Below, piece by piece: positions 51,922 to 63,633 of a stretch of 64,000 bases of DNA. How positions within the stretch are numbered: the first letter of the stretch is position 1; the number at the start of each line of letters is the position of its first letter. The notes beneath the pieces were generated by a model, which saw only the letters and a program-made list of their open reading frames with translations, did no database searches and was not told the origin of the DNA. The stretch comes from an uncultured Verrucomicrobiae bacterium (GTDB lineage Bacteria > Verrucomicrobiota > Verrucomicrobiia > Chthoniobacterales > JAATET01): positions 448,001-512,000 of the forward strand of contig CAVRCI010000013.1 of assembly GCA_963719495.1 (NCBI GenBank), given 5' to 3'. The position numbers were made by a program, and so were the translations under genes.

Positions 51922-52100
51922 GAATCGAGGGCAAGCGCCCCAGCGCCCCAACCGTCAAAAGGTAGGGCAGCCGGGCCCCGGGAGCCGTGACATCCTCTCA
52001 GCGGGTCCAACCCCACGCCCACCCGTTGGCACGCCACCCAACTCGAACCCAAGCGCCCTTCGCGCCCCCGCGTCACCAATCAGCTCAGCCGGTAAACCTG

Positions 52101-52257
52101 AAAAGAAAATGAGACAGGATTAACAGGATTAACGGGATGATCAGGAATGACTGATGAGGCGGGGATTGTTCACCCTCTGAGTGAGCGGGGACTTTGTTCG
52201 AAGTCACTGAAATTCAATCCCTTCAATCCTGGAAATCCTGTCCATTCCGGGATTTAG
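52101..52257 (+). repeat. Dispersed MITE-like repeat, copy 3
   Basis: GACAGGATT...AATCCTGTC inverted ends; similar to 5096-5255 and 9693-9794. Confidence 0.7.
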
Positions 52258-52295
52258 GTTAAAACGGAGGCCAGCCTTGACGATGCGGTGCGCAA

Positions 52296-52622
52296 TCACC
52301 CGGTCACCGAAGGGATCATGAGGGCGAACAGGAAGGTTGCGAGAACCGAAACGCCGAGACACCAATACCCCAACCGACGTTCCGGTCTCTGCTGAATTCG
52401 CAGAGCGACGATGGTCGCGACAAGCAGAACGAATCCAGTCAGACCGACGCTCGGATAGATCCAGCCGTATCCGTCGACGAACTCCAGATCCGCCCGAAGC
52501 ATCCAGCAGCCGAGCAGGATCGGGAAATCCAACATCGTCGTCGCGGCGAGCAAAAGAATCCGCGGCCCCAGGTCCGAGCCAAATCCCCGGTCGACGGGCG
52601 TGATGAGTTCGTCTTCGATCAC
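52296..52622 (-). CDS. Small hypothetical membrane protein
   Basis: Three hydrophobic segments; start uncertain. Confidence 0.45.
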   Translation of the reverse strand: MIEDELITPVDRGFGSDLGPRILLLAATTMLDFPILLGCWMLRADLEFVDGYGWIYPSVGLTGFVLLVATIVALRIQQRPERRLGYWCLGVSVLATFLFALMIPSVTG

Positions 52623-52672
52623 GAAGCAATTTAGACATGGTTTTCGGCAAATGAGAAACAAGTCGGATATTC

Positions 52673-53340
52673 GAGGAAGGGGTCAGTCCGTTCAAGAGGA
52701 AGGGGTCGAGGAAGGGGTCAGTCCGGAATGGCACTGCTTTAAGCCAGTTTTCGGGGAGAAAGATGGAGGGAGATCCGCTGATTTGGTAGATTAAAGTGTG
52801 AGCAGCAACCAACCATTTCTCAGCGGATTCCCAACTCAAATATGTGGCAAAATGCGGCGGCGTCTGCAAGCGGTCATCGCGGAGCGACGGAGCGCATTGG
52901 CAGAGTCATCCATAGCGACCTACGCGCTGCAGTTTTCCCACATCCTGCCGGCCGATTTTTTGGAGTCACTCTCGCTCACGCAACGGGTTCGGCAGTATTG
53001 CAATGTGGTCGTCTTCTGGGTGTGGCTAAGGAAGGGGTCAGTCCGTTCAATGGTTCAGAATCGCCCAACGGACGGGCCCAGAGATCCCGCAGCATGTGTT
53101 TTGAACCAATGAACGGACTAACCCCTTTGAGACCCCTTTGACGGCGTGACGGCGCGGTCGGACGCGGGGACTGACGGGCAATTTCGGACGACCGATCGGA
53201 CTTAGCAGCCGAGCGTTGGGCGGCAATTTCTGAACCAATGCACGGACTGACCCCTTTGACGGACTGACCCCTTTGACGGACTTGAACCAATGCACGGACT
53301 GACCCCTTTGATGAACCAATGCACGGACTGACCCCTTTGA
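52673..53340. repeat. Cluster of nested GGGGTC/GACCCC-end repeats, including a ~96-bp TIR mini-element (53032-53127)
   Basis: Four units start AGGAAGGGGTC; six units end CCCCTTTGA (53130, 53141, 53259, 53276, 53311, 53340). Confidence 0.9.
52726..53028 (+). pseudogene. IS4-family left end and transposase N-terminal fragment
   Basis: Starts GAATGGCAC like the 57712 IS; ORF NQPFLSGFP...RVRQYCNVVVFWVWL is cut at an AAGGGGTC motif. Confidence 0.75.
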
Positions 53341-53769
53341 AAAGACATGCTCGACGCGCACGCGAATCTTGCTGATGGCGTGGTTGGATTTGCGGGTGGC
53401 CTCGTCCAGCGGGCGATTGCGGTTGGCTTTTCGCATCATGAACTCCTGCGCGTCGCAGCGCTCGAGGACATGGACTTCGCTTTCCGCTGAATAATTGGCG
53501 CTGGCGGCTAGCGCCGCCTGATCAGTTTCATCCACGAGTTGGGCGAAGACTTGGCTGTCATGCACGTTGGCAGGTGTCGTGGCGTGCGTGTCGATGAGCT
53601 TGGTCTTGGCGTCGATTTTCGCGTGGTTCTTGTAGCCAAAATGGGTCTCCGCGTTCTTTTTCGTCCAACACGCGTCGCAATCCTTTTGGCGACCCCGGGC
53701 CGTTCCCGCTTCGAAACCAGCGGGACGTTCGCCTTTTTTGATCTGCGCATTCTCCTCAGCGGTTCTCAT
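53341..53769 (-). pseudogene. IS5-family transposase fragment, truncated at both ends
   Basis: Same sequence as 62897-63325, cut at RVEHVF. Confidence 0.8.
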
Positions 53770-53873
53770 TTTGGTATTGTTGAAGTGCCGGAGGGCGGTC
53801 GGTTGACTCGATGGGGAAGTGAATTGGAGCGCGGACTTGTACTTTTTGGGCAGTACCGGCATGGCTTGGACCC

Positions 53874-54031
53874 ATGAAAACCACGCCGCCCGGATTGGCC
53901 CGCATTATCGGGAAGTTCCGTGCCGTGGCGGGGGGACTTCCCGATCCGCGCAAGGGTAAGAGCACGAGTTTTTCGATGGCGGACATCGCGCTGAGCGCGT
54001 TTTCGGTATTCTTCACGCAGAGCGCGTCGCC
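53874..54031 (+). pseudogene. ISNCY-like transposase N-terminal fragment (second copy 62635-62792, minus strand)
   Basis: LPDPRKGKSTSFSMADIALSAFSVFFTQS. Confidence 0.6.
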
Positions 54032-54744
54032 TTCGTCAACTGGCATCCTCGCGCATGCACGGGGCGTGACAGCGCCCCGGCTCTGCGGGGGTGTTGGCGC
54101 GAGCCGTGCGCGCCCGCTCGATGCGAGGATGATCGGCTCTCCGATCACCGGAACGATCCGGAGCGGCTGGCTTACACTCGGGAGCGGACCACGCGGGGGC
54201 GGGGCCGCTCTGGGTCCCGTCCCGGCGTGGGCTGCAGGGCTGGTGAACCGGGCATTGCCGTATGGCGTCGCTTCTGTGTTGCGGCCTGGCGCGGGACCTG
54301 CCCGACCCCGCGCTCTGGCGGGGTCGGAGGCATTATATCACCCAACTCGCGGCAACGTATTAGCCGAGGGAGCGCTCTGGCGACCGGTGCCGCGGAGGGC
54401 CCCTTTAGGGAGGCACCGCGTCAGGCACGGCTATACGGTGCCGCTGTTGGGCGATGTCATGCCGCGCAGGTCCCGTGCCCCGAAGGGCGAGCGAAGCGAA
54501 GCAGGCCGCAATCGTAACCCAACCGGAGCGCTCTGGCGCAGGGTCGAATTTGCAGGACGGGGGCGGGCGGGATGGTGAGGGATCGAGTTACGAGAGGCGA
54601 GCGGCGGCGCGTCGGATGCCGGGTGGCAGGGGCATTAGCATCCGGCGTGACGGCGCGGTCGGACGCGGGAGCTGGCAAACAATTGAGAGAGCAAATGTGT
54701 CATTATGAATGACCGACCCCTCAGCGATGAATGACCGACCCCTC

Positions 54745-56078
54745 GGTATGAACGGGAACATTGGTTACAGATAAACCGACCACATAGGTAACACTTAGAG
54801 GGTTAGTTTTCATGGCTTGCGGGAGCAAGCTTCGACTCCCAACGCTCGGCGTAGGCCGTAGGCCGGAGCCGAGCGTTGGGAGTCCGATCCAGCCACCCGA
54901 GCTTCACATTGGCATATCGAACGGCCAGCAGCCCTGTCTCCGGCGATTCCTCCACGGCCACATCGACGCCGATCAGTGACTCGCCGACGAAGCAGTTGTT
55001 TCCATTCAAGGAGATGAAGCCTGCTTTGTTCACCCGCTTGGTTTCCACCCCTGCCTCGTAGAGCGCAGGTTTGATGCGTTCGTCCAACCGGCGCAGGGAG
55101 GGTTGATAGGCTTGCGCCGGTGTCCTCATGCCGATGCCCTCGTGCGGACGCTCGTCGTTAAAGACTCTGCGCCACCGGTCAAAACGTTGCTGTTGGGCCC
55201 AACGGTTCGCGCTTCCCGGCTGACAGCATTCGGCCTTCATCGTGCGATGCATCCGTTCGTGGCAGCCGTTGTCCTGCGGACAGCCAGGTCGGCTGAACTG
55301 CACTTCGATACCCAATCCGATCCACCACACGCTCAGTCTGCTCAATCCCGCTGGTCCCATCGACGCGAACGGGGAGCCATTGTCCACGCGAATGATCTCC
55401 GGCAGCCCGTAGCGCTTGAATACACTGCGGAACTCGCGCTGCGTCCACTTTACCGTCATGTCCGGCATCGCCTCCGCTTTCATCAGGTATCGACTGTGCA
55501 GATCGCTCACCGTCAACGGATCGCAACGCTCGCCGTCACCCAGCAGGAACCATCCCTTGTAGTCCACTCCGAGCACGTGGTTACAGCGTTCCGGCGGCGT
55601 CAGCGTCCCTCGTTCCACCGTGAAGAGGCCTCCTCGCCGCTTGCGCGCCTTCACCAGCCCGTGCCGCTTGAGAACCTCTCCCACCGTGCTTACGACCGGT
55701 AAACGATCCACTTCGTGCTTCACTTCGAGCACTCGCTGGATCTTCTTCGGCCCCCACGTCGGATGTAACCGCTTTTCGGCCACAATCAGCCGCTCCACCG
55801 CTTCTTCTGTCCTGCTCGTCACCGTCTTCGGGGCCCGGCTCCAATCCTCTAGTCCGCCCATCCCGTGGGCCTCGTATCGCGCCTTCCACTTGTGACCCGT
55901 CTTGCGCGAGATGCCGAAACTTTCGCACAGCTCCACCATCGTGAACCGGTCGCTCGTCAGCAAACTTACAAATCTCTGTTTCTGTTCCATCGGTGACTCG
56001 TTTTGCCAGGGCATTCACCACCCTGAACTGTCACCCATGTCCTCGGTCAATCTGTCACCTATGTCCTCGGTTCATACC
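54745..56078 (-). mobile_element. IS481-family insertion sequence
   Basis: Imperfect ~28-bp TIRs GGTATGAAC...ACAGAT; internal TGTCACCYATGTCCTCGGT repeats. Confidence 0.85.
54803..56014 (-). CDS. IS481-family transposase
   Basis: MPW..., GISRKTGHKW HTH, DYKG, DNGSPF, PQDNGCHERMHRT. Confidence 0.93.
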   Translation of the reverse strand: MPWQNESPMEQKQRFVSLLTSDRFTMVELCESFGISRKTGHKWKARYEAHGMGGLEDWSRAPKTVTSRTEEAVERLIVAEKRLHPTWGPKKIQRVLEVKHEVDRLPVVSTVGEVLKRHGLVKARKRRGGLFTVERGTLTPPERCNHVLGVDYKGWFLLGDGERCDPLTVSDLHSRYLMKAEAMPDMTVKWTQREFRSVFKRYGLPEIIRVDNGSPFASMGPAGLSRLSVWWIGLGIEVQFSRPGCPQDNGCHERMHRTMKAECCQPGSANRWAQQQRFDRWRRVFNDERPHEGIGMRTPAQAYQPSLRRLDERIKPALYEAGVETKRVNKAGFISLNGNNCFVGESLIGVDVAVEESPETGLLAVRYANVKLGWLDRTPNARLRPTAYAERWESKLAPASHEN

Positions 56079-56099
56079 CCCCTTTTTGACCGACCCCTT

Positions 56100-56807
56100 T
56101 TCGTTCTCCACAAACCCCACCGGTTACCCAAGGGCGTTCTCACCAACGAGCAAGTGTTGCGGCTGCTCGCGCAGCCTGAGCTTGCCACCCCCAACGGCTA
56201 CCGCGACCGCACCATCCTCGAACTGCTCTACTCAAGCGGCTTGCGCGGCCTCGAACTCGCCCGGCTCACGATTTACGACGTGGACTTCAAGGACGGCACC
56301 GCCCGCGTCGTCCAGGGCAAAGGCAACAAGGATCGCATCGTCCCGCTCGGCCGCACCGCCGCCGGATACCTCCGCGAATACCTGGCCCACATCCGCCCGA
56401 TCCTGCTCGGCCGGGCCGTCCGCCAGAAAGCCGTCGAGCGTCTGTTCCTCACCGGCCGCGGCGGCGCGTTCAACTCCAACGTGCTGCGGCGCTTGGTCCG
56501 CCGCCATGCCAAGGCCGCGGGCCTGCCGCCTACCACCGCCGCCCACGGCCTCCGGCACGCGTGCGCGACTGAAATGCTCAAAGGCGGAGCGAACGTCCGT
56601 CACGTCAAGGAACTCCTCGGCCACGCGACGTTGACGACCACGCAGGTTTACACCCGCGTCATCCCCGTCGATCTCCAGAAAGTCCACGCCGCCACGTCCC
56701 CCAGCGAACGCCGCCGCAAGCTCGACGTTCCCGAGTTCGAGCTGGTCCGGTTCCGCGACCGGAAAAACAAGACCAGCCTCTCCCAAACCCCGTGGAAACG
56801 GCGCTGA
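56100..56807 (+). pseudogene. XerD-like tyrosine recombinase, N-terminally truncated
   Basis: RDRTILELLYSSGLR, GKGNKDR, HGLRHACAT, LLGH...TTQVY; no start codon or N-terminal binding domain. Confidence 0.85.
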
Positions 56808-56838
56808 ACGGGATCGCCACGGCTCCGCCAGCTGCCGT

Positions 56839-57327
56839 ATGATCCCCGACGTGCGCACGACTCCGGTCCTCTACCTCGATACCTCCGTTCTCGGCGGCTA
56901 CTACGACGACAAATGGGAGGAAGACACGGTTGCGCTCTGGCAGCAGATGGAGGCCGGACAATGGCGGTTCGTCAGCTCCGACATCACCACCAAGGAAATT
57001 GAAGGCGCTCCTGAAAATGTCCGCGATCTTTTTGCCCGGACGTTCCCGCTTGGCACGCTGCTCGAAGTCACCGACGAAATGGAAGACCTCGCCGCCGCCT
57101 ACATCGCCCAGGGCGTCGTCACCCAAAAATACGAGGACGACGCCCTCCACGTCGCCGTCTGCACCGTCGCCCGGATCGACTTCCTCGTGAGTTGGAACTT
57201 CCGGCACATGGTCAGCGCCCACCGCAAAGCCGGGTTCAACGGCGTCAATCTGTTGAAAGGATACCCGCACGTCACTATCGTGAACCCACTGGAACTCATC
57301 TATGAAAACCGCAACAAAAACCTTTGA
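56839..57327 (+). CDS. PIN-domain toxin
   Basis: LYLDTSVLGG, DALHVAV, LVSWNFRH. Confidence 0.88.
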   Translation: MIPDVRTTPVLYLDTSVLGGYYDDKWEEDTVALWQQMEAGQWRFVSSDITTKEIEGAPENVRDLFARTFPLGTLLEVTDEMEDLAAAYIAQGVVTQKYEDDALHVAVCTVARIDFLVSWNFRHMVSAHRKAGFNGVNLLKGYPHVTIVNPLELIYENRNKNL

Positions 57328-57493
57328 TGGCGTGGAGATGTCCCGGCGGCTGCGCGAGGACACCAGCCGTCTGCTTCACTCCATGAACCGAGAGCAACGG
57401 CGTGAATGTCTGCGCGAGGCCCGCGAACGCTACGCCGCCGAGCTTGCCGCCCGCCAATCCAGGCAGCCGCTCGAAACCGCCTCTTCTTCCTAG
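57302..57493 (+). CDS. Putative antitoxin (downstream of toxin)
   Basis: 63-aa KTFDGVEMSRRLRE ORF overlapping the PIN gene. Confidence 0.65.
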   Translation: MKTATKTFDGVEMSRRLREDTSRLLHSMNREQRRECLREARERYAAELAARQSRQPLETASSS

Positions 57494-57719
57494 CCGTTGC
57501 TTCGTTCCCGCCGTGGTCGCCTTCCTCAAAAACGCGCCTCCGCTCCGCGTCCGCCGTTCCCGTTCCGGGATCGCGCGCCCGCACGCGCGAAGCTTTGGGG
57601 AGTGGCCGCGAATAAAGTTGGTTCCCGTGGAAATGGAATGGAAAGCTAAATAGAGCCTGTCCGAAAAGAGCGGATCAAGCATTGAAAGGAGTAATCAAAG
57701 GGGTCAGTCCGGAATGGCA

Positions 57720-59225
57720 CTAAGATAAGGGGGATTTGGGAGGATTTTCGACCCCGGATTTTCGGTGAGGGAGCGGTCCCATTTGGCGGCGGGGCTTGGT
57801 CAAGAGGCGATAGTTTTTGGGGCGGCGTTTTCTGACTCTGGGTTCGGATCGGTCTGGGCGCAGCGGAACGAGATCGCTGGCGATGGCAGAGAGCATGGCG
57901 TCGAGGATGGCGGAGATGGTGCGGGGTTTAGCGTTGGCCCCACTGGTGGCGTTGGCGAACTGACGGACGGTATCGAGAGTGCCCTTGAAGGAGACGCGAT
58001 CCAGGTCGAGTTCGTGAATCAGGGCGGCTTTCTGCATGACGCTGCGGACGAGGTTGTAGGCGATGAAGTGCATGAGGAGTTCGCGCTCGATGAGGGCCGG
58101 GGATTTGCAGCGCAAGACGTCCATGTTGAGAGCGATCTTGATCTCGCGAAAATGGAGTTCGACGCTCCAGCGGCGGAAGTAGAGGGAGGCGAGATCATCG
58201 GCGGGAATGGCCGTCTCGGAGAGCAGCAGGGTGGTCACCAAGGTCACGGTCTGGGTGCGGAAGCCGGGTTGGGCGATGGTGTAGCGCACGACGCGCACTG
58301 GAATATCCGCGGGCCAGAGCGCGAACTCCTCGGGCGTCATCCCGCGTGGTCGCTGCGCGGGGCGCTTCCAGACAATGTTCACATCGAAATTTGCCGACTT
58401 GGGAAGCTGAGCACCAATGGCCTTGCGGATCCGTTTTTCGGGCAAGCGCATCAACGAGTCCACGCCCAGGGAGAGCAGACCGGCAATAGCCCCGAAGGAA
58501 CAAAATCCCCGGTCGGTGAGAACGAGATCGCCACGATTGAAAATGCTCCAAAGGTTGCGAAAAAGCCGGGTCTCATGGGTGAGACGATCGCCCCAATCCG
58601 CCTTGAGAAGAGCTCCGGTGAGAAGGCAGAAAACGCCAACCAGATTGATTGCGGGAAAGCCACACCCCGGCTTCTGACTGCTGCTCTGCGGCCAACGATC
58701 TTGATTGGCTTCGGTGTCGGGCATGGAGACACCCGTGCCGTCCACGAGCCGTACCTGGCGACCATGCCAGAGAGCGCCGCTGGGAATATTGGCTTCCATG
58801 CGCACGGCCAGATGGGTGTTGATTCCTTCCAGTGTCGCCACCGGGAGCTTGGCTCGCGCCTGGCAATAAGCGCTGGTATTGCCACTCATGACCTCGGTCT
58901 CTGTAGTGCCAGACGGTTTGGATTTTCTGCTCACCAAAGCCATGACCTTGCACACGGCTTCGCGACAGGAACCGTTCGGGGTTTGCACCTGATCCAGGAA
59001 GCTCCAGAAGACACGTTCGAGCGAGAAAATGCGCTTGCGGCTGTGAGCACAGCTGGGCGTTGAGCTAAGTAACTTCCGTGAAATGTAGGAGCCAAAGACG
59101 TTGACCAACACCGAGAGCGAACCGCTCTGCCTGAGCTTGGCAAGGGCCTGCGTCAGGGGTGAGACTGGCGGTCGTCCAAAAAGCCGCGAACTAAAATTTG
59201 GGAAAAACGGGTTGAAAGAACGCAT
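57720..59225 (-). CDS. IS4-family transposase
   Basis: LVDGT, TDRGF, LYFRRWSVELHFREIK, EPRVRKRRPK. Confidence 0.92.
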   Translation of the reverse strand: MRSFNPFFPNFSSRLFGRPPVSPLTQALAKLRQSGSLSVLVNVFGSYISRKLLSSTPSCAHSRKRIFSLERVFWSFLDQVQTPNGSCREAVCKVMALVSRKSKPSGTTETEVMSGNTSAYCQARAKLPVATLEGINTHLAVRMEANIPSGALWHGRQVRLVDGTGVSMPDTEANQDRWPQSSSQKPGCGFPAINLVGVFCLLTGALLKADWGDRLTHETRLFRNLWSIFNRGDLVLTDRGFCSFGAIAGLLSLGVDSLMRLPEKRIRKAIGAQLPKSANFDVNIVWKRPAQRPRGMTPEEFALWPADIPVRVVRYTIAQPGFRTQTVTLVTTLLLSETAIPADDLASLYFRRWSVELHFREIKIALNMDVLRCKSPALIERELLMHFIAYNLVRSVMQKAALIHELDLDRVSFKGTLDTVRQFANATSGANAKPRTISAILDAMLSAIASDLVPLRPDRSEPRVRKRRPKNYRLLTKPRRQMGPLPHRKSGVENPPKSPLS

Positions 59226-59267
59226 CCAATACAAGTATATATACTTAATCGAAGCCGCCAGTGAATT

Positions 59268-59621
59268 ATGCCGAAAACCGCTAAAAAATCCGACCTCACC
59301 GCCCGGGAAATCCGTCGACTCGAAGCACGCTACAGCACCCTGGCCTCGGAGCTGGGAAGCTTCCCCGAATTGAGTCAGGGAAGCGTGATGCCCCAACCTC
59401 CCCGGGCTTGGCGGTGGACCCGCAAAGTTGCCGGAAAAACCGTCACCGTTGGGCTCAGTCCCCTCAAAGCCCAAAGGATGAAACTAGCCATCGCCAACCA
59501 TCGAAAGCTGGAAAAGAACGTTACCGAGATGCGCGAGATAACCCAGAAACTCATCTTGAGAACCCCAGATCCCTCCCCGATTCCCAAACGCGAGCCGCCT
59601 CCTAAATCCTCCTTAAGTTAG
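59268..59621 (+). CDS. IS accessory ORF (DUF6788-like)
   Basis: LSQGSV...WRWTRKVAGKTVTVGL...AIANHRKL. Confidence 0.7.
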   Translation: MPKTAKKSDLTAREIRRLEARYSTLASELGSFPELSQGSVMPQPPRAWRWTRKVAGKTVTVGLSPLKAQRMKLAIANHRKLEKNVTEMREITQKLILRTPDPSPIPKREPPPKSSLS

Positions 59622-59629
59622 TGCCATTC

Positions 59630-59878
59630 GGGTCAGCCGATGAATTCTTCAAAGCGGTAGGGGTCAGCCGATGAATTCTGACGACGCTTAGCTAGCGGAA
59701 GGGGTCACGTGAAGGGGTCGGTCCATAGCATTGGCACATTCGGCGCTCGCAACTTTCCATCGATTTTCGACTTTCACTGTCGGGCTCAGATTCGGAGAGG
59801 GAAGTGGGGGTCAGAAGTGGGGGGTCAGTATGCAAAAACGAATTCCTACTTCCCGCGGAAAGGGGTCGGAAAGGGGTC
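59630..59878 (+). repeat. Second cluster of stuttered GGGGTC ends (several subtypes)
   Basis: GGGTCAGCCGATGAATTC x2, GAAGGGGTC x2, GAAGTGGGGGTCAG x2, GGAAAGGGGTC x2. Confidence 0.85.
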
Positions 59879-60058
59879 GTGGGCGGGAGCGAAAATTCAG
59901 CGGGTGACGTCACCGCTCCCGTCAACACCACGGACGATCCGGTGGGCTTGGTCGCACAGCCGACACACATCACGGCGAGCGCGCAGGCGCAAAAGAAACG
60001 GGACCTTCGCCGAGTCTACCCCGTTGCGCAATGGAGTCGCGCGGGCATCATGCGCCGG

Positions 60059-60338
60059 ATGCCGCCCGCGACCGATCCGACCATCGTCCTGACCGAAAAA
60101 TCCCTCACGGGCATGGGCGGTTGGCAGATTTGGAAGCAGGCGCGAGCCATCCACGAAGGCGGTCACGTGACCGAAGCGACCTACGAGCCGCCGTTGCTCA
60201 AAGGACGAGTCTCGGAGGGCGGTAAAGAATTCCTCGCGGCTTCCGCTTCAACAACCGCATCGACGTCGACAACCTGTGCCCCTGCCGCGACTCCCGCGTT
60301 CGCGTTCTGATCTGCGCTCACTCCATCGCCGTCGTAGA
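60059..60338 (+). pseudogene. N-terminal SWIM zinc-finger fragment, probably of a SNF2 helicase, frameshifted and truncated
   Basis: GGWQIWKQARAI... then NLCPCRDSR..LICAHSIAV in another frame; ends at GTCAGTCCGTTCATTGGTTCAG. Confidence 0.65.
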
Positions 60339-60880
60339 ACGTGTCAGTCCGTTCATTGGTTCAGAATTCGCATCCGATGCCCGCTTACTCAAAGAAATCC
60401 CCCCCCGAATTACCGCCGGTTCGCGGCATGCGCCCGCGTCGTAACGCCGGATGCAGATTGCACCGACCGCCCGGCATCCGACGCGCCGACGCTCGCTTCC
60501 GGTAGCTCGGAGGTCCGGGCTAATTCGTCGGCGGGGGCGAGCTGATGGTTGGTTCAGAGTGGGTGAACCGAGGGATGTGATTGCGAAAAACGTCACCGGG
60601 GCGAGACGAAGAAAGTGGCACCGCGGAGATTGAAGACGGCTGGCGCGGCGCGACCAGCCCTACCCAGTCGGGTAGGGAACGTCGCGCCGCGCGTTCCCTC
60701 GCTCTCTCGGCCTACTTTCGCAATCACACCCTGAACCGAGTCTTGCGAGCGTTCACAATTGACCTGCCGTCGGTCGTGGCGGCGTTCGGTGATCGCCGTT
60801 CGCTTCTCGCCCAGGTGGTGCAACCGTATGCTCACGCCCGACATTGGCTACTGATCCCAAGTCATGGACGCTTCCCAACG

Positions 60881-61843
60881 ATGTCTCCCACCCGCCTTTT
60901 CTCCTTCCTAGCCGTCGCCACCGCGACCCCGCTCTTTGCCGCCGATTCGCCGAATCTTTATTGGCCGGGCACGTTCGAGGGGGCCGTCTTCGGGGGGAAC
61001 TTCAGCTCCGCGAAAAACGTCCAACTCGAGACCGGCACCAATCACACGCCGGGCGGAACCCGGGCTTGGAAGATCCAACCGGGCTACCAACACCTTGAAC
61101 TGCTCACCGACGGGACCGGCGATTTCGAAGTCTCCTTCCACGCCCGCGCCGAGAGTCGACTCGAAGTCGTGCTGAAGGTCATCAGTCCGGGCGCCGACGG
61201 CAAGCTAGCGGAGGACCCTCATTCCATCACGATCGAGCCCTCCGAAGACTGGCGGGAATACCGCGCGGTCGTGCCGGTGAGCGATCCCTACCCAGGTCCC
61301 CGCACCGGCGAGATCCTCGTCACCGCCTTTCAATCCGGCGACGCCGACATCTGGATCGACGATCTGGAAGTGCGCCGAGCGAGCGAGGATCCGGACGCGC
61401 CGTCGCCCGCTCCCGCCCCGGACGCCACGACCTCGATCCCGCTCGGCGGCGAAAGCGAACTCGCCGTGGACCAGGCGCCAATTCCCTCCTCGATTTCCCG
61501 CGACATCCCGGTCGACGGACTGGCCGGAAACCATGTCCGCGTCTGGCTCGACGTCACCTACGACTCCGTTGCCGAGCCCGCGAAGAATTGGGCCGGCGTC
61601 GTCGCCGAGCTTCGCGCCACCGACGCCGCCGGATCGTCCACCGTCCTCGAATCGACTCCGGCGCCCTTCTGGCTTCCCATCGGGCACGCGGCCCCCGCGG
61701 GCGAGCCGCGCACGATCCGGGCTGAATACTCGATCCCCGCCGACGCTCAATCACTCACCTTCCTCGCGCAACTCCAGCCGGGCGCGCAGTCAAACGGTGC
61801 CCGCCTCGAAAATCACCGGATCGAACGTCTCTCCGAAAAGTAG
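60881..61843 (+). CDS. Secreted protein with carbohydrate-binding-module-like domains
   Basis: Signal peptide; NL...GTFE, WREY, IWIDDLEV pattern. Confidence 0.7.
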   Translation: MSPTRLFSFLAVATATPLFAADSPNLYWPGTFEGAVFGGNFSSAKNVQLETGTNHTPGGTRAWKIQPGYQHLELLTDGTGDFEVSFHARAESRLEVVLKVISPGADGKLAEDPHSITIEPSEDWREYRAVVPVSDPYPGPRTGEILVTAFQSGDADIWIDDLEVRRASEDPDAPSPAPAPDATTSIPLGGESELAVDQAPIPSSISRDIPVDGLAGNHVRVWLDVTYDSVAEPAKNWAGVVAELRATDAAGSSTVLESTPAPFWLPIGHAAPAGEPRTIRAEYSIPADAQSLTFLAQLQPGAQSNGARLENHRIERLSEK

Positions 61844-61944
61844 CTCCCTTGGGTGGCGGAAAAAGCGCCGCCTACGACTGGCTCAGTGCCAGCGTCCCGG
61901 CAACGTGTTCGTAAAACGGATCGCCGGGCACGATCGAGCCGAAA

Positions 61945-63325
61945 AGGGGTCGGTCATTCATAATGACACATTTGCTCTCTCAATTGTTTGCCAGCTCCCG
62001 CGTCCGACCGCGCCGTCACGCCGGATGCTAATGCCCCTGCCACCCGGCATCCGACGCGCCGCCGCTCGCCTCTCGTAACTCGATCCCTCACCATCCCGCC
62101 CGCCCCCGTCCTGCAAATTCGACCCTGCGCCAGAGCGCTCCGGTTGGGTTACGATTGCGGCCTGCTTCGCTTCGCTCGCCCTTCGGGGCACGGGACCTGC
62201 GCGGCATGACATCGCCCAACAGCGGCACCGTATAGCCGTGCCTGACGCGGTGCCTCCCTAAAGGGGCCCTCCGCGGCACCGGTCGCCAGAGCGCTCCCTC
62301 GGCTAATACGTTGCCGCGAGTTGGGTGATATAATGCCTCCGACCCCGCCAGAGCGCGGGGTCGGGCAGGTCCCGCGCCAGGCCGCAACACAGAAGCGACG
62401 CCATACGGCAATGCCCGGTTCACCAGCCCTGCAGCCCACGCCGGGACGGGACCCAGAGCGGCCCCGCCCCCGCGTGGTCCGCTCCCGAGTGTAAGCCAGC
62501 CGCTCCGGATCGTTCCGGTGATCGGAGAGCCGATCATCCTCGCATCGAGCGGGCGCGCACGGCTCGCGCCAACACCCCCGCAGAGCCGGGGCGCTGTCAC
62601 GCCCCGTGCATGCGCGAGGATGCCAGTTGACGAAGGCGACGCGCTCTGCGTGAAGAATACCGAAAACGCGCTCAGCGCGATGTCCGCCATCGAAAAACTC
62701 GTGCTCTTACCCTTGCGCGGATCGGGAAGTCCCCCCGCCACGGCACGGAACTTCCCGATAATGCGGGCCAATCCGGGCGGCGTGGTTTTCATGGGTCCAA
62801 GCCATGCCGGTACTGCCCAAAAAGTATAAGTCCGCGCTCCAATTCACTTCCCCATCGAGTCAACCGACCGCCCTCCGGCACTTCAACAATACCAAAATGA
62901 GAACCGCTGAGGAGAATGCGCAGATCAAAAAAGGCGAACGTCCCGCTGGTTTCGAAGCGGGAACGGCCCGGGGTCGCCAAAAGGATTGCGACGCGTGTTG
63001 GACGAAAAAGAACGCGGAGACCCATTTTGGCTACAAGAACCACGCGAAAATCGACGCCAAGACCAAGCTCATCGACACGCACGCCACGACACCTGCCAAC
63101 GTGCATGACAGCCAAGTCTTCGCCCAACTCGTGGATGAAACTGATCAGGCGGCGCTAGCCGCCAGCGCCAATTATTCAGCGGAAAGCGAAGTCCATGTCC
63201 TCGAGCGCTGCGACGCGCAGGAGTTCATGATGCGAAAAGCCAACCGCAATCGCCCGCTGGACGAGGCCACCCGCAAATCCAACCACGCCATCAGCAAGAT
63301 TCGCGTGCGCGTCGAGCATGTCTTT
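61945..63325 (+). repeat. 1381-bp inverted duplication, right copy
   Basis: Reverse complement of 53341-54721. Confidence 0.95.
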
Positions 63326-63633
63326 GGACGAATTGCGCAGATGGGCATGGATTACTGCCGATCCATCGGAGTGCGACGCGCCAGCCGGCACAACAGCCTT
63401 TGTAATCTGGTCTACAATCTTGATCGCTACGCCATCCTCATGCGCGGGGCGTGAAAATCCCACCGAATCCCTCCTCGATGGTCCGAATTCCGGGCGGCTC
63501 GGGCTCGAATGGTCCGTCGTCCGGTCTCCAAACCGTTGCTTTTGGCCCCGCCGATGTCGCCAAATGACACGTCCGATCAAAAAATTTCCATCGATTCTCT
63601 CGTTGCGTCAAAATCAGCGTTACCGGAGGTGCC
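62897..63633 (+). mobile_element. IS5-family remnant (C-terminal transposase to 63454 plus right end)
   Basis: QKDCDACWTKK..HFGYKNH, IRVRVEHVFG, NLVYNL; right end GGAGGTGCC followed by CTTA; catalytic D region degenerate. Confidence 0.8.

Follow-up and report, generated by a model that had tools for sequence, protein, structure and literature searches.

The 64,000-nucleotide (nt) window analyzed here (G000:C13:448001-512000, where G000 is the genome of an uncultured Verrucomicrobiae bacterium and C1, C2, C5, C7 to C11, and C13 to C15 are its contigs) contains an island of short, stuttering units built around the hexamer GGGGTC. These stutters are a real feature of the window, and the units are terminal inverted repeats (TIRs) of TIRtrons, dispersed through the genome. 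An earlier reading of the window (the original prediction) correctly gave the units a fixed terminus but placed it at GGGGTC itself; comparison of the units with one another puts it about 5 nt outside the hexamer. A TIRYT protein, a Y1/HUH enzyme encoded elsewhere, probably nicks the DNA about 5 nt outside GGGGTC, and primed extension followed by rejoining would then explain both the stutters and the joints found beside them.

Stutter units share a fixed start and differ at their 3' ends

The motif AAGGGGTC occurs 19 times in the window (2.4 expected), and 16 of the 19 occurrences lie at 52677-61951. Our catalogue of 52600-62000 comprises 34 rows, of which 24 were kept as TIR-type ends and 10 without a TIR body were dropped by eye. 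Genome-wide, 134 typed ends fall into 36 clusters, 30 of them without a TIRYT gene; together with 3-kb margins, these clusters make up 6.5% of the genome. Perfect tandem pairs are found at 19.3 per 1000 GGGGTC, compared with 0 to 3.1 for 29 permuted hexamers, and a stutter unit is present at 50 of 135 full TIRs versus 2 of 1018 control sites.

Offsets are counted from GGGGTC, with minus values lying outside the repeat (the leader side) and plus values running into it. A start at -5 fits 45 of 62 distinct units, whereas 16.3 would be expected with both ends free and the maximum in 200,000 simulations was 31. Parsing the arrays as copies of their last element yielded 45 arrays and 59 nonredundant units. 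Among these units, 44 fit a start at -5 and 51 a start at -4 to -6, while the 3' ends lie anywhere between +2 and +82, most often at +6 to +8 (32 units) or +12 (10 units). This tabulation agrees with the predicted short units that are fixed at one end and variable at the other; the original prediction had also considered that both ends might vary at random, and the start is instead fixed near -5. Conservation does not extend to the leader, of which the 134 ends show 62 types; it is purine-rich near the TIR. A degenerate end lacking the G-run (CGTGTC) also stutters from -5 in one C14 copy. No shared hairpin was found among five folded ends (z, -2.2 to +1.7).

Neighboring type A copies carry an identical T/G variant in 16 of 17 pairs despite a genome-wide ratio of 24:21, which shows the stutter units to be local copies. 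When long perfect tandem units were sought strictly, only six were recovered, of 40 to 87 nt. Self-BLAST of eight chosen regions identified longer copies that obey the same start rule, of about 300 nt on C5; on C15, such copies extend 230 nt and more than 575 nt into a gene.

The repeats bracket TIRYT genes encoded outside the window

A PF01797 profile search of the genome returned 12 Y1 matches, six of which are free-standing genes of 311 to 354 amino acids. GGGGTC inverted repeats of 20 to 30 nt bracket all six of these long genes (the right-hand TIR of the gene at C13:435.5k reads GGGTC), and the other six matches are unbracketed. No TIRYT gene was detected in the window by tblastn. These results uphold the idea of a trans-acting HUH/Y1 enzyme that is tied to the motif and encoded outside the window. 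The six TIRYT genes correspond to five TIR types, one type being common to two near-identical genes. Y1 transposase domains also occur in frame within larger open reading frames (ORFs) at G000 C10:1249-4539, C14:100566-103346, and C13:378005-381496 (L009 to L011), the hosts of which we take from their translations to be leucyl-tRNA synthetase, RecG, and alanyl-tRNA synthetase.

All five TIRYT proteins compared score above the PF01797 cut-off, and the HUH residues H60 and H62, the catalytic Y121, and WSS, a serine motif after the core, are invariant in their alignment. The distance from HUH to the tyrosine agrees with the 58 to 67 amino acids or so of TIRYT enzymes. The predicted TIRYT structure has TnpA-REP 4ER8 as its best fold match. 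For the modeled C-terminal domain (pLDDT 81), the highest TM-scores, 0.60 to 0.61, are with DnaA domain IV, a likeness that is nonsignificant (E values of 1.6 to 5.9), and the domain has no sequence match in Pfam or the PDB. The closest named relatives of these proteins are mostly Verrucomicrobiota records.

The TIR start GGGGTCAG of types A, C, D, E, and F equals the published consensus GGGGWSAS, and that of type B, GGGGTCGG, is one change off. Subtype AGTCCGT.CATTGG (type A) pairs with the gene at C11:169331, GGTCATTCAT with the C13:310k gene, and AGTATGC, with one change, with the C1 gene. Subtype AGCCGATGAATT has no gene in G000 and brackets an intact 353-amino-acid gene in the sister genome G005, where its pattern count is 30 versus 5 in G000. 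All five subtypes named in the original prediction are present, but the doubling ascribed to each is imperfect for AGCCGATG, whose first copy is the flank of an IS4 element, and for GGTCCATAGC, whose copies have different leaders.

The elements almost certainly belong to an already named family, the TIRtron/TIRYT family (Di Nocera, De Gregorio, Rocco 2013; PMC3733652), classified as TnpA-Y1 subclass 2.1 (Quentin et al. 2018; PMC6006769). They are probably members of subclass 2.1.2. TTGACA is frequent in TIRs about 50 nt upstream of the transposase start (L006 and many of L014 to L092). A promoter scan at one TIR locus found no full sigma-70 promoter, and autoregulation is hence not claimed.

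We further compared 80 related, separately assembled loci, 75 of which were testable for paired TIRs. Inward-facing paired TIRs are present at 51 of the 75, against 2 in a reversed control, in line with the expectation that the motif would flank Y1/HUH genes in relatives. Stutters recur at 24 of the 80 loci.

Genes and mobile elements are cut at TIR leaders

From 111 array 5' ends we obtained 18 informative events, namely those for which the upstream DNA could be compared with an intact copy, with duplicated segments and one TIR seed excluded. Twelve of these junctions lie at -3 to -6, five at -8 to -11, and one, an IS481 insertion, at -2; none lies at 0. As predicted, the IS4 and IS5 fragments of the window are cut at the motif: identity to the intact copy stops 6 nt before GGGGTC for IS4 (53027; -6) and 5 nt before it for IS5 (53341; -5). 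A 4243-nt segment in common with C14 stops at 61941 (-4). The claim that a SWIM-type fragment is cut in the same way holds in that the fragment stops at 60334, before the 5-nt leader TAGAA, but the end that follows is degenerate (CGTGTCAGTCCG). The xerD-like gene of the window lacks its N-terminal part beside the end at 56097, and an intact copy is absent from the genome. An amidohydrolase gene, intact in G005, ends next to a TIRtron on C9, the cut being at about -5.

Whole elements obey similar limits. Two-TIR units of 1721 nt and 96 nt are duplicated with their leaders, with boundaries near -4 to -6, and in elements and mini-elements at different sites, the common sequence stops at about -4 to -6 on either side. 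The C1-type TIRtron occupies three different sites in G000 and G001 (97 to 99% identity). At a site shared with G003, the TIRs of the type A TIRtron are 100% identical, the gene is about 70% identical, and the stutters differ. No direct repeat adjoins GGGG in any of the 17 inverted pairs of the genome, and a 5-nt target repeat was found at 0 of the 51 TIR-paired relatives.

Of 18 single typed ends, 17 have GGGGTC on the C-rich strand, compared with 21% of background GGGGTC. By cluster, 27 of 36 have a C-rich-strand majority, 5 a G-rich one, and 4 are tied. The 16S, EF-Tu, rpoB, rpoC, and rpsL genes (5/5 found) are all on the G-rich strand, which we therefore took as the leading strand; on this assignment, isolated ends would carry GGGGTC on the lagging-strand sequence. 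The dnaA gene lies about 260 kb from the GC-skew switch on contig C13 (C13:403610 and 665087).

A nick, extension, and rejoining could produce stutters and joints

The enzymatic steps that we infer are as follows. A TIRYT enzyme encoded elsewhere would nick the GGGGTC strand near -5, leaving the enzyme on the 5' end of the leader and a 3'-OH on the flank. The DnaA-domain-IV-like C-terminal domain may bind the TIR and set the cut by distance, a proposal made because the 5-nt leader lacks a conserved sequence. From the free 3'-OH, host polymerase would then copy into the repeat, and only afterward would the 5' end carried by the enzyme be rejoined; its joining to the extended 3'-OH would create a tandem stutter unit with a fixed start and a variable end. 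A template switch to another TIR copy could give units such as those of 118 nt and 1381 nt, and joining to an unrelated 3'-OH, plausibly that of a nascent lagging strand, would produce truncated genes and stitched segments. A scheme of this kind has already been proposed for BIME amplification by TnpA-REP (PMC3333891, Fig. 7B), and it parallels the one-ended transposition described for IS91 (PMC13181058).

Several observations weigh against this scheme. Eight of the 59 units start outside -4 to -6, and 6 of the 18 junctions lie beyond -3 to -6. The start is broader in the relatives, with 16 of 39 units fitting -5 and a tail to -13. Unit ends at +6 to +8 or +12 (42 of 59), although partly a matter of ascertainment, could mean a second preferred cut. 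The 62 leader types are unexplained if leaders always travel with the end. Strand bias is the same for stuttered and unstuttered ends, and sequence cannot tell which strand is cut. A cognate gene for the GGTCCATAGC subtype (type G) was searched for and not found. No empty site was found within the genome; in same-genus genomes, searches with the flanks recovered intact neighboring genes and, in G003, the orthologous site in occupied form, with no clean empty site. Finally, ends inside one cluster are related, so the counts of units and ends are not fully independent.

Alternative explanations

The main rival to nicking and extension keeps the same enzyme and has it cut the other strand. TIRYT would act on the single-stranded lagging-strand template (the GACCCC strand). 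One cut would fall 5 nt past GACCCC and the other at a variable site, and strand transfer would join the two as in IS200/IS605 or in BIME excision-integration, with no primed synthesis. The strand bias places GACCCC on the lagging-strand template, the substrate preferred by IS608 and ISDra2 according to PMC3333891, where TnpA-REP is also reported to cut many C|T sites over more than 400 nt; the preferred unit ends at +6 to +8 and +12 fit a second cut as well. Each duplication would, however, need a sister copy as partner. Inspection of the junction list by eye reveals no single dinucleotide at the variable ends, the five folded ends have no consistent hairpin, and the modeled C-terminal domain resembles, nonsignificantly, a binder of duplex DNA. 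We regard this chemistry as unlikely.

Replication slippage, or fork stalling at G-runs or protein-bound TIRs, combined with deletions by neighboring DDE insertion sequences (ISs), might be invoked since G-runs can slip and IS4 and IS481 are present in many TIRs. Yet the start is fixed relative to the motif rather than random, permuted G-rich hexamers have no stutters, the degenerate CGTGTC end stutters from -5 without a G-run, and the junctions are at TIR leaders and not at IS ends, making a host-only process improbable. We reject random slippage because unit starts are fixed relative to GGGGTC and permuted hexamers do not stutter. The Tn3 family typically has GGGG termini and 5-bp duplications, and the TIRs could in principle be of a Tn3-like or other DDE type. 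The 5-nt leader would then be a target-site duplication that arises anew each time an end fragment inserts, and the resulting 5-nt repeat in every unit would give the same sequence picture. This very improbable reading is largely refuted by the target repeat, which is absent from all 17 inverted pairs and all 51 relatives. Further, the bracketed gene is Y1/HUH and not DDE, the leaders travel with the ends, and the units copy local variants and flank.

That the stutters are an assembly artefact of this metagenome-derived genome we consider improbable in the extreme. A check against contigs from run X1, which may be the source sample, identified a 151-nt read-derived contig that runs through the 11-nt stutter without differences and extends at least 31 nt past it in both directions. 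Across the IS5 joint, coverage reaches just 17 nt on one side, and coverage in this run misses the 52673-52725 array and 53273-53303. Runs X2 and X3, with small shares only, were left out as evidence. The same geometry nevertheless recurs at 24 of 80 separately assembled loci, and unit lengths differ within arrays, both of which speak against an artefact.

Organization of the island and contribution of insertion sequences

The island is a patchwork of segments found elsewhere in the genome (317, 1388, 1951, and 4243 nt) together with an internal 1381-nt copy. It opens with a type A stutter array on the plus strand (52673..52725; 6-nt leader GAGGAA, start offset -6) with units of 23, 12, and 18 nt. 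The original prediction gave these lengths correctly, but the third unit (52708-52725) is ended by an IS4 insertion and not by a stutter end. The inserted IS4-family element follows on the same strand as its first 302 nt (52726..53027), lying in a TIR and cut short at the next leader; positions 52711-53027 match C7:41464-41780 at 100% identity, and the C7 copy runs on beyond this point. Next come a plus-strand type A TIR with a 6-nt leader (53028..53062), the left end of a 302-nt inverted pair, and a minus-strand type A array (53097..53340; leader TCAAA) with units of 29, 35, 17, 118, and 11 nt and a final TIR of the GGGGTT variant. The 35-nt unit had been read as a second 29; the other lengths were right.

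The 1381-nt segment at 53341..54721 (minus strand) is an inverted copy of 61945-63325 with 99.9% identity. It begins inside a type B TIR and ends in the IS5 gene at a type A leader, as predicted for copying from one end into another, and its leader at the type B TIR differs from that of the template. A doubled type B TIR on the minus strand (54692..54747; GGGGTCGGTCATTCAT) is cognate to the TIRYT gene at C13:309608-310543. An IS481-like element with GGTATGAAC ends (54745..56078, minus strand), for which NCBIfam IS481 is the best match but below cut-off, is inserted in the leader and G-run of this TIR type; it has copies at three other loci, and several such copies lie in or beside TIRs. A truncated type B end with its leader (56079..56102, minus strand; GGGGTCGGTC at 56097) precedes the xerC/D-like tyrosine recombinase gene (56103..56807, plus strand), whose translation matches the XerD profile from position 97 of 290. 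After this fragment, 56839-57493 holds an ORF with a weak PIN-domain match (E value of 0.06) and then a short ORF, possibly a toxin-antitoxin pair.

A plus-strand leader with the first 12 nt of a TIR (57695..57711) is the target of a complete IS4-family element (57712..59629, minus strand; ends GAATGGCACT; NCBIfam IS4 above cut-off) inserted in the TIR. The group to which this element belongs, with about 50 ends genome-wide, targets the TIR sequence GGGTCAGTCCG and includes many derivatives of about 280 nt with the same ends. Within two mismatches, GGGTCAGTCCG or its complement flanks 24 of 51 IS4-type ends, compared with a 0.04% background, and at the C2 copy it forms an 11-bp target repeat, a length within the range given for subgroup IS4 in PMC2266710.

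Four repeats, all on the plus strand, follow the IS4-family element or lie beyond it: two copies of TIR type F (59630..59690; GGGGTCAGCCGATGAATTC), whose cognate gene was not found in the assembly and which brackets an intact TIRYT in G005; type G with an imperfect 13-nt stutter (59696..59740; GGGGTCGGTCCATAGC), for which a cognate gene was likewise not found; type D with a stutter and then an 11-nt doubled end (59801..59880; GGGGTCAGTATGCAAAAA), one change from the TIR of the C1 TIRYT; and a degenerate type A TIR (60335..60367; leader TAGAA and CGTGTCAGTCCGTTCATTGGTTCAG), stuttered in one C14 copy and unstuttered in the window. Directly before the last lies a frameshifted 5' gene fragment (60050..60334, plus strand) with 84% identity to an intact paralogue at C13:578193. 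We presume from its CxC..CxH motif that it is of SWIM-type/SNF2-type; a Pfam search of its pieces gave no match. All of these lie within the plus-strand segment 57699..61941, the 4243 nt in common with C14:31601-27360 (99.1% identity), which is cut at the leader of the next TIR. That TIR, of type B with leader GAAAA (61941..61972, plus strand), starts the template of the 1381-nt copy, and an IS5-family transposase ORF (62804..63454, plus strand; IS5/DDE match) continues beyond the cut point of the copy.

Judging from these insertion sites, IS4 and IS481 elements insert at TIRs and co-build the mosaic. The original prediction had the HUH enzyme build it; the joints at TIR leaders agree with this, but DDE elements (IS4 and IS481) and larger duplications make part of it. 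Nothing shows that DNA is captured selectively by a dedicated system of the kind that the same prediction had proposed. Two other dispersed repeats are present: one of about 165 nt (CAGGATTAACAGGATT... arms) at 52076-52262, with at least 15 other copies in the genome, and one at 60571-60731. The core of the latter is also found beside a short Y1 gene on C8 (L012), of which the repeat is possibly a REP-like partner.

Relation to known systems

With the published TIRtrons (PMC3733652, PMC6006769), the elements share a Y1/HUH gene, here of 311 to 354 amino acids, bracketed by TIRs starting GGGG(W)(S)A(S), TIR types that are gene-specific, and dispersed single, dimeric, and grouped TIRs. A C-terminal HTH/DnaA-like extension is described for the family; the modeled C-terminal domain here has a nonsignificant likeness to DnaA domain IV. 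The passages of those papers considered here contain no end-anchored stutters, joint about 5 nt outside the TIR, long one-ended copies, strand bias, or mechanism.

TnpA-REP/RAYT with REP-BIME (Ton-Hoang et al. 2012; PMC3333891) has the same fold, and the amplification proposed in Fig. 7B of that paper predicts such arrays. Our ends differ in having no GTAG-tagged hairpin and a cut apparently set by distance instead of a C|T dinucleotide. REPtrons are reported not to move as a unit, whereas the TIRtrons here occur as whole elements at different sites. We do not place the elements among REPtrons/RAYTs: the flanks are TIRs without a shared hairpin, and NF047646 scores of the TIRYT proteins are 44 to 62 against a cut-off of 80. 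A tie of one RAYT group to tandem repeats was not borne out; the word "tandem" is absent from PMC5581495.

IS91/ISCR elements (PMC13181058) resemble the TIRtrons in HUH chemistry, lack of target-site duplication, and variable-length one-ended products. In IS91, the ori and ter ends differ from each other, TIRs are lacking, and a tetranucleotide serves as the target. The two ends of the TIRtrons, by contrast, resemble each other, stutters occur at either one, and the enzyme belongs to the Y1 group of IS200/RAYT type. The motif is a terminal inverted repeat and not an IS91-type origin, and symmetric TIRs, a Y1 enzyme, and varied junction sequences set the elements apart from IS91/ISCR. REP-targeting ISs (PMC1525189; IS4 subgroup, PMC2266710) offer a parallel to our IS4-family element, which prefers a short dispersed repeat and has an 11-bp target repeat; the target here is a TIRtron end and not a REP hairpin.

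Implications

The family is known; the mode of action at its ends is undescribed in the literature searched, and it is testable. That search found no mapped TIRYT cut site or mechanism and no description in the text of the stutters, the -5 joint, or the strand bias, although figures and supplements of PMC3733652 and PMC6006769 could show stutters. The arrays and junctions give a precise prediction as to strand, position (about -5), cognate enzyme-TIR pairs, and orientation to the fork.

More tentatively, and at somewhat less than even odds in our judgment, TIRtrons may represent a distinct mode of HUH mobility. Each TIR would serve as an origin of rolling-circle type, at which a ruler places the cut about 5 nt outside the repeat without sequence specificity; the bound end would join almost any free 3'-OH at the fork, such as Okazaki ends; and a few enzymes acting in trans on more than 100 ends would build islands from host and mobile DNA by duplicating, truncating, and splicing it. 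If so, the stutters would be a natural record of an amplification step that has to date been no more than a proposal, made for REP/BIME. TIRYT-like genes abound: an estimated 24,000 or so stored sequence stretches contain a pattern match. A compact HUH enzyme able to link a tagged end to arbitrary 3' ends would also be attractive as a tool, and if the mechanism of nicking, extension, and rejoining is right, it would explain genome rearrangement by TIRtrons and support the corresponding model for REP/BIME amplification.

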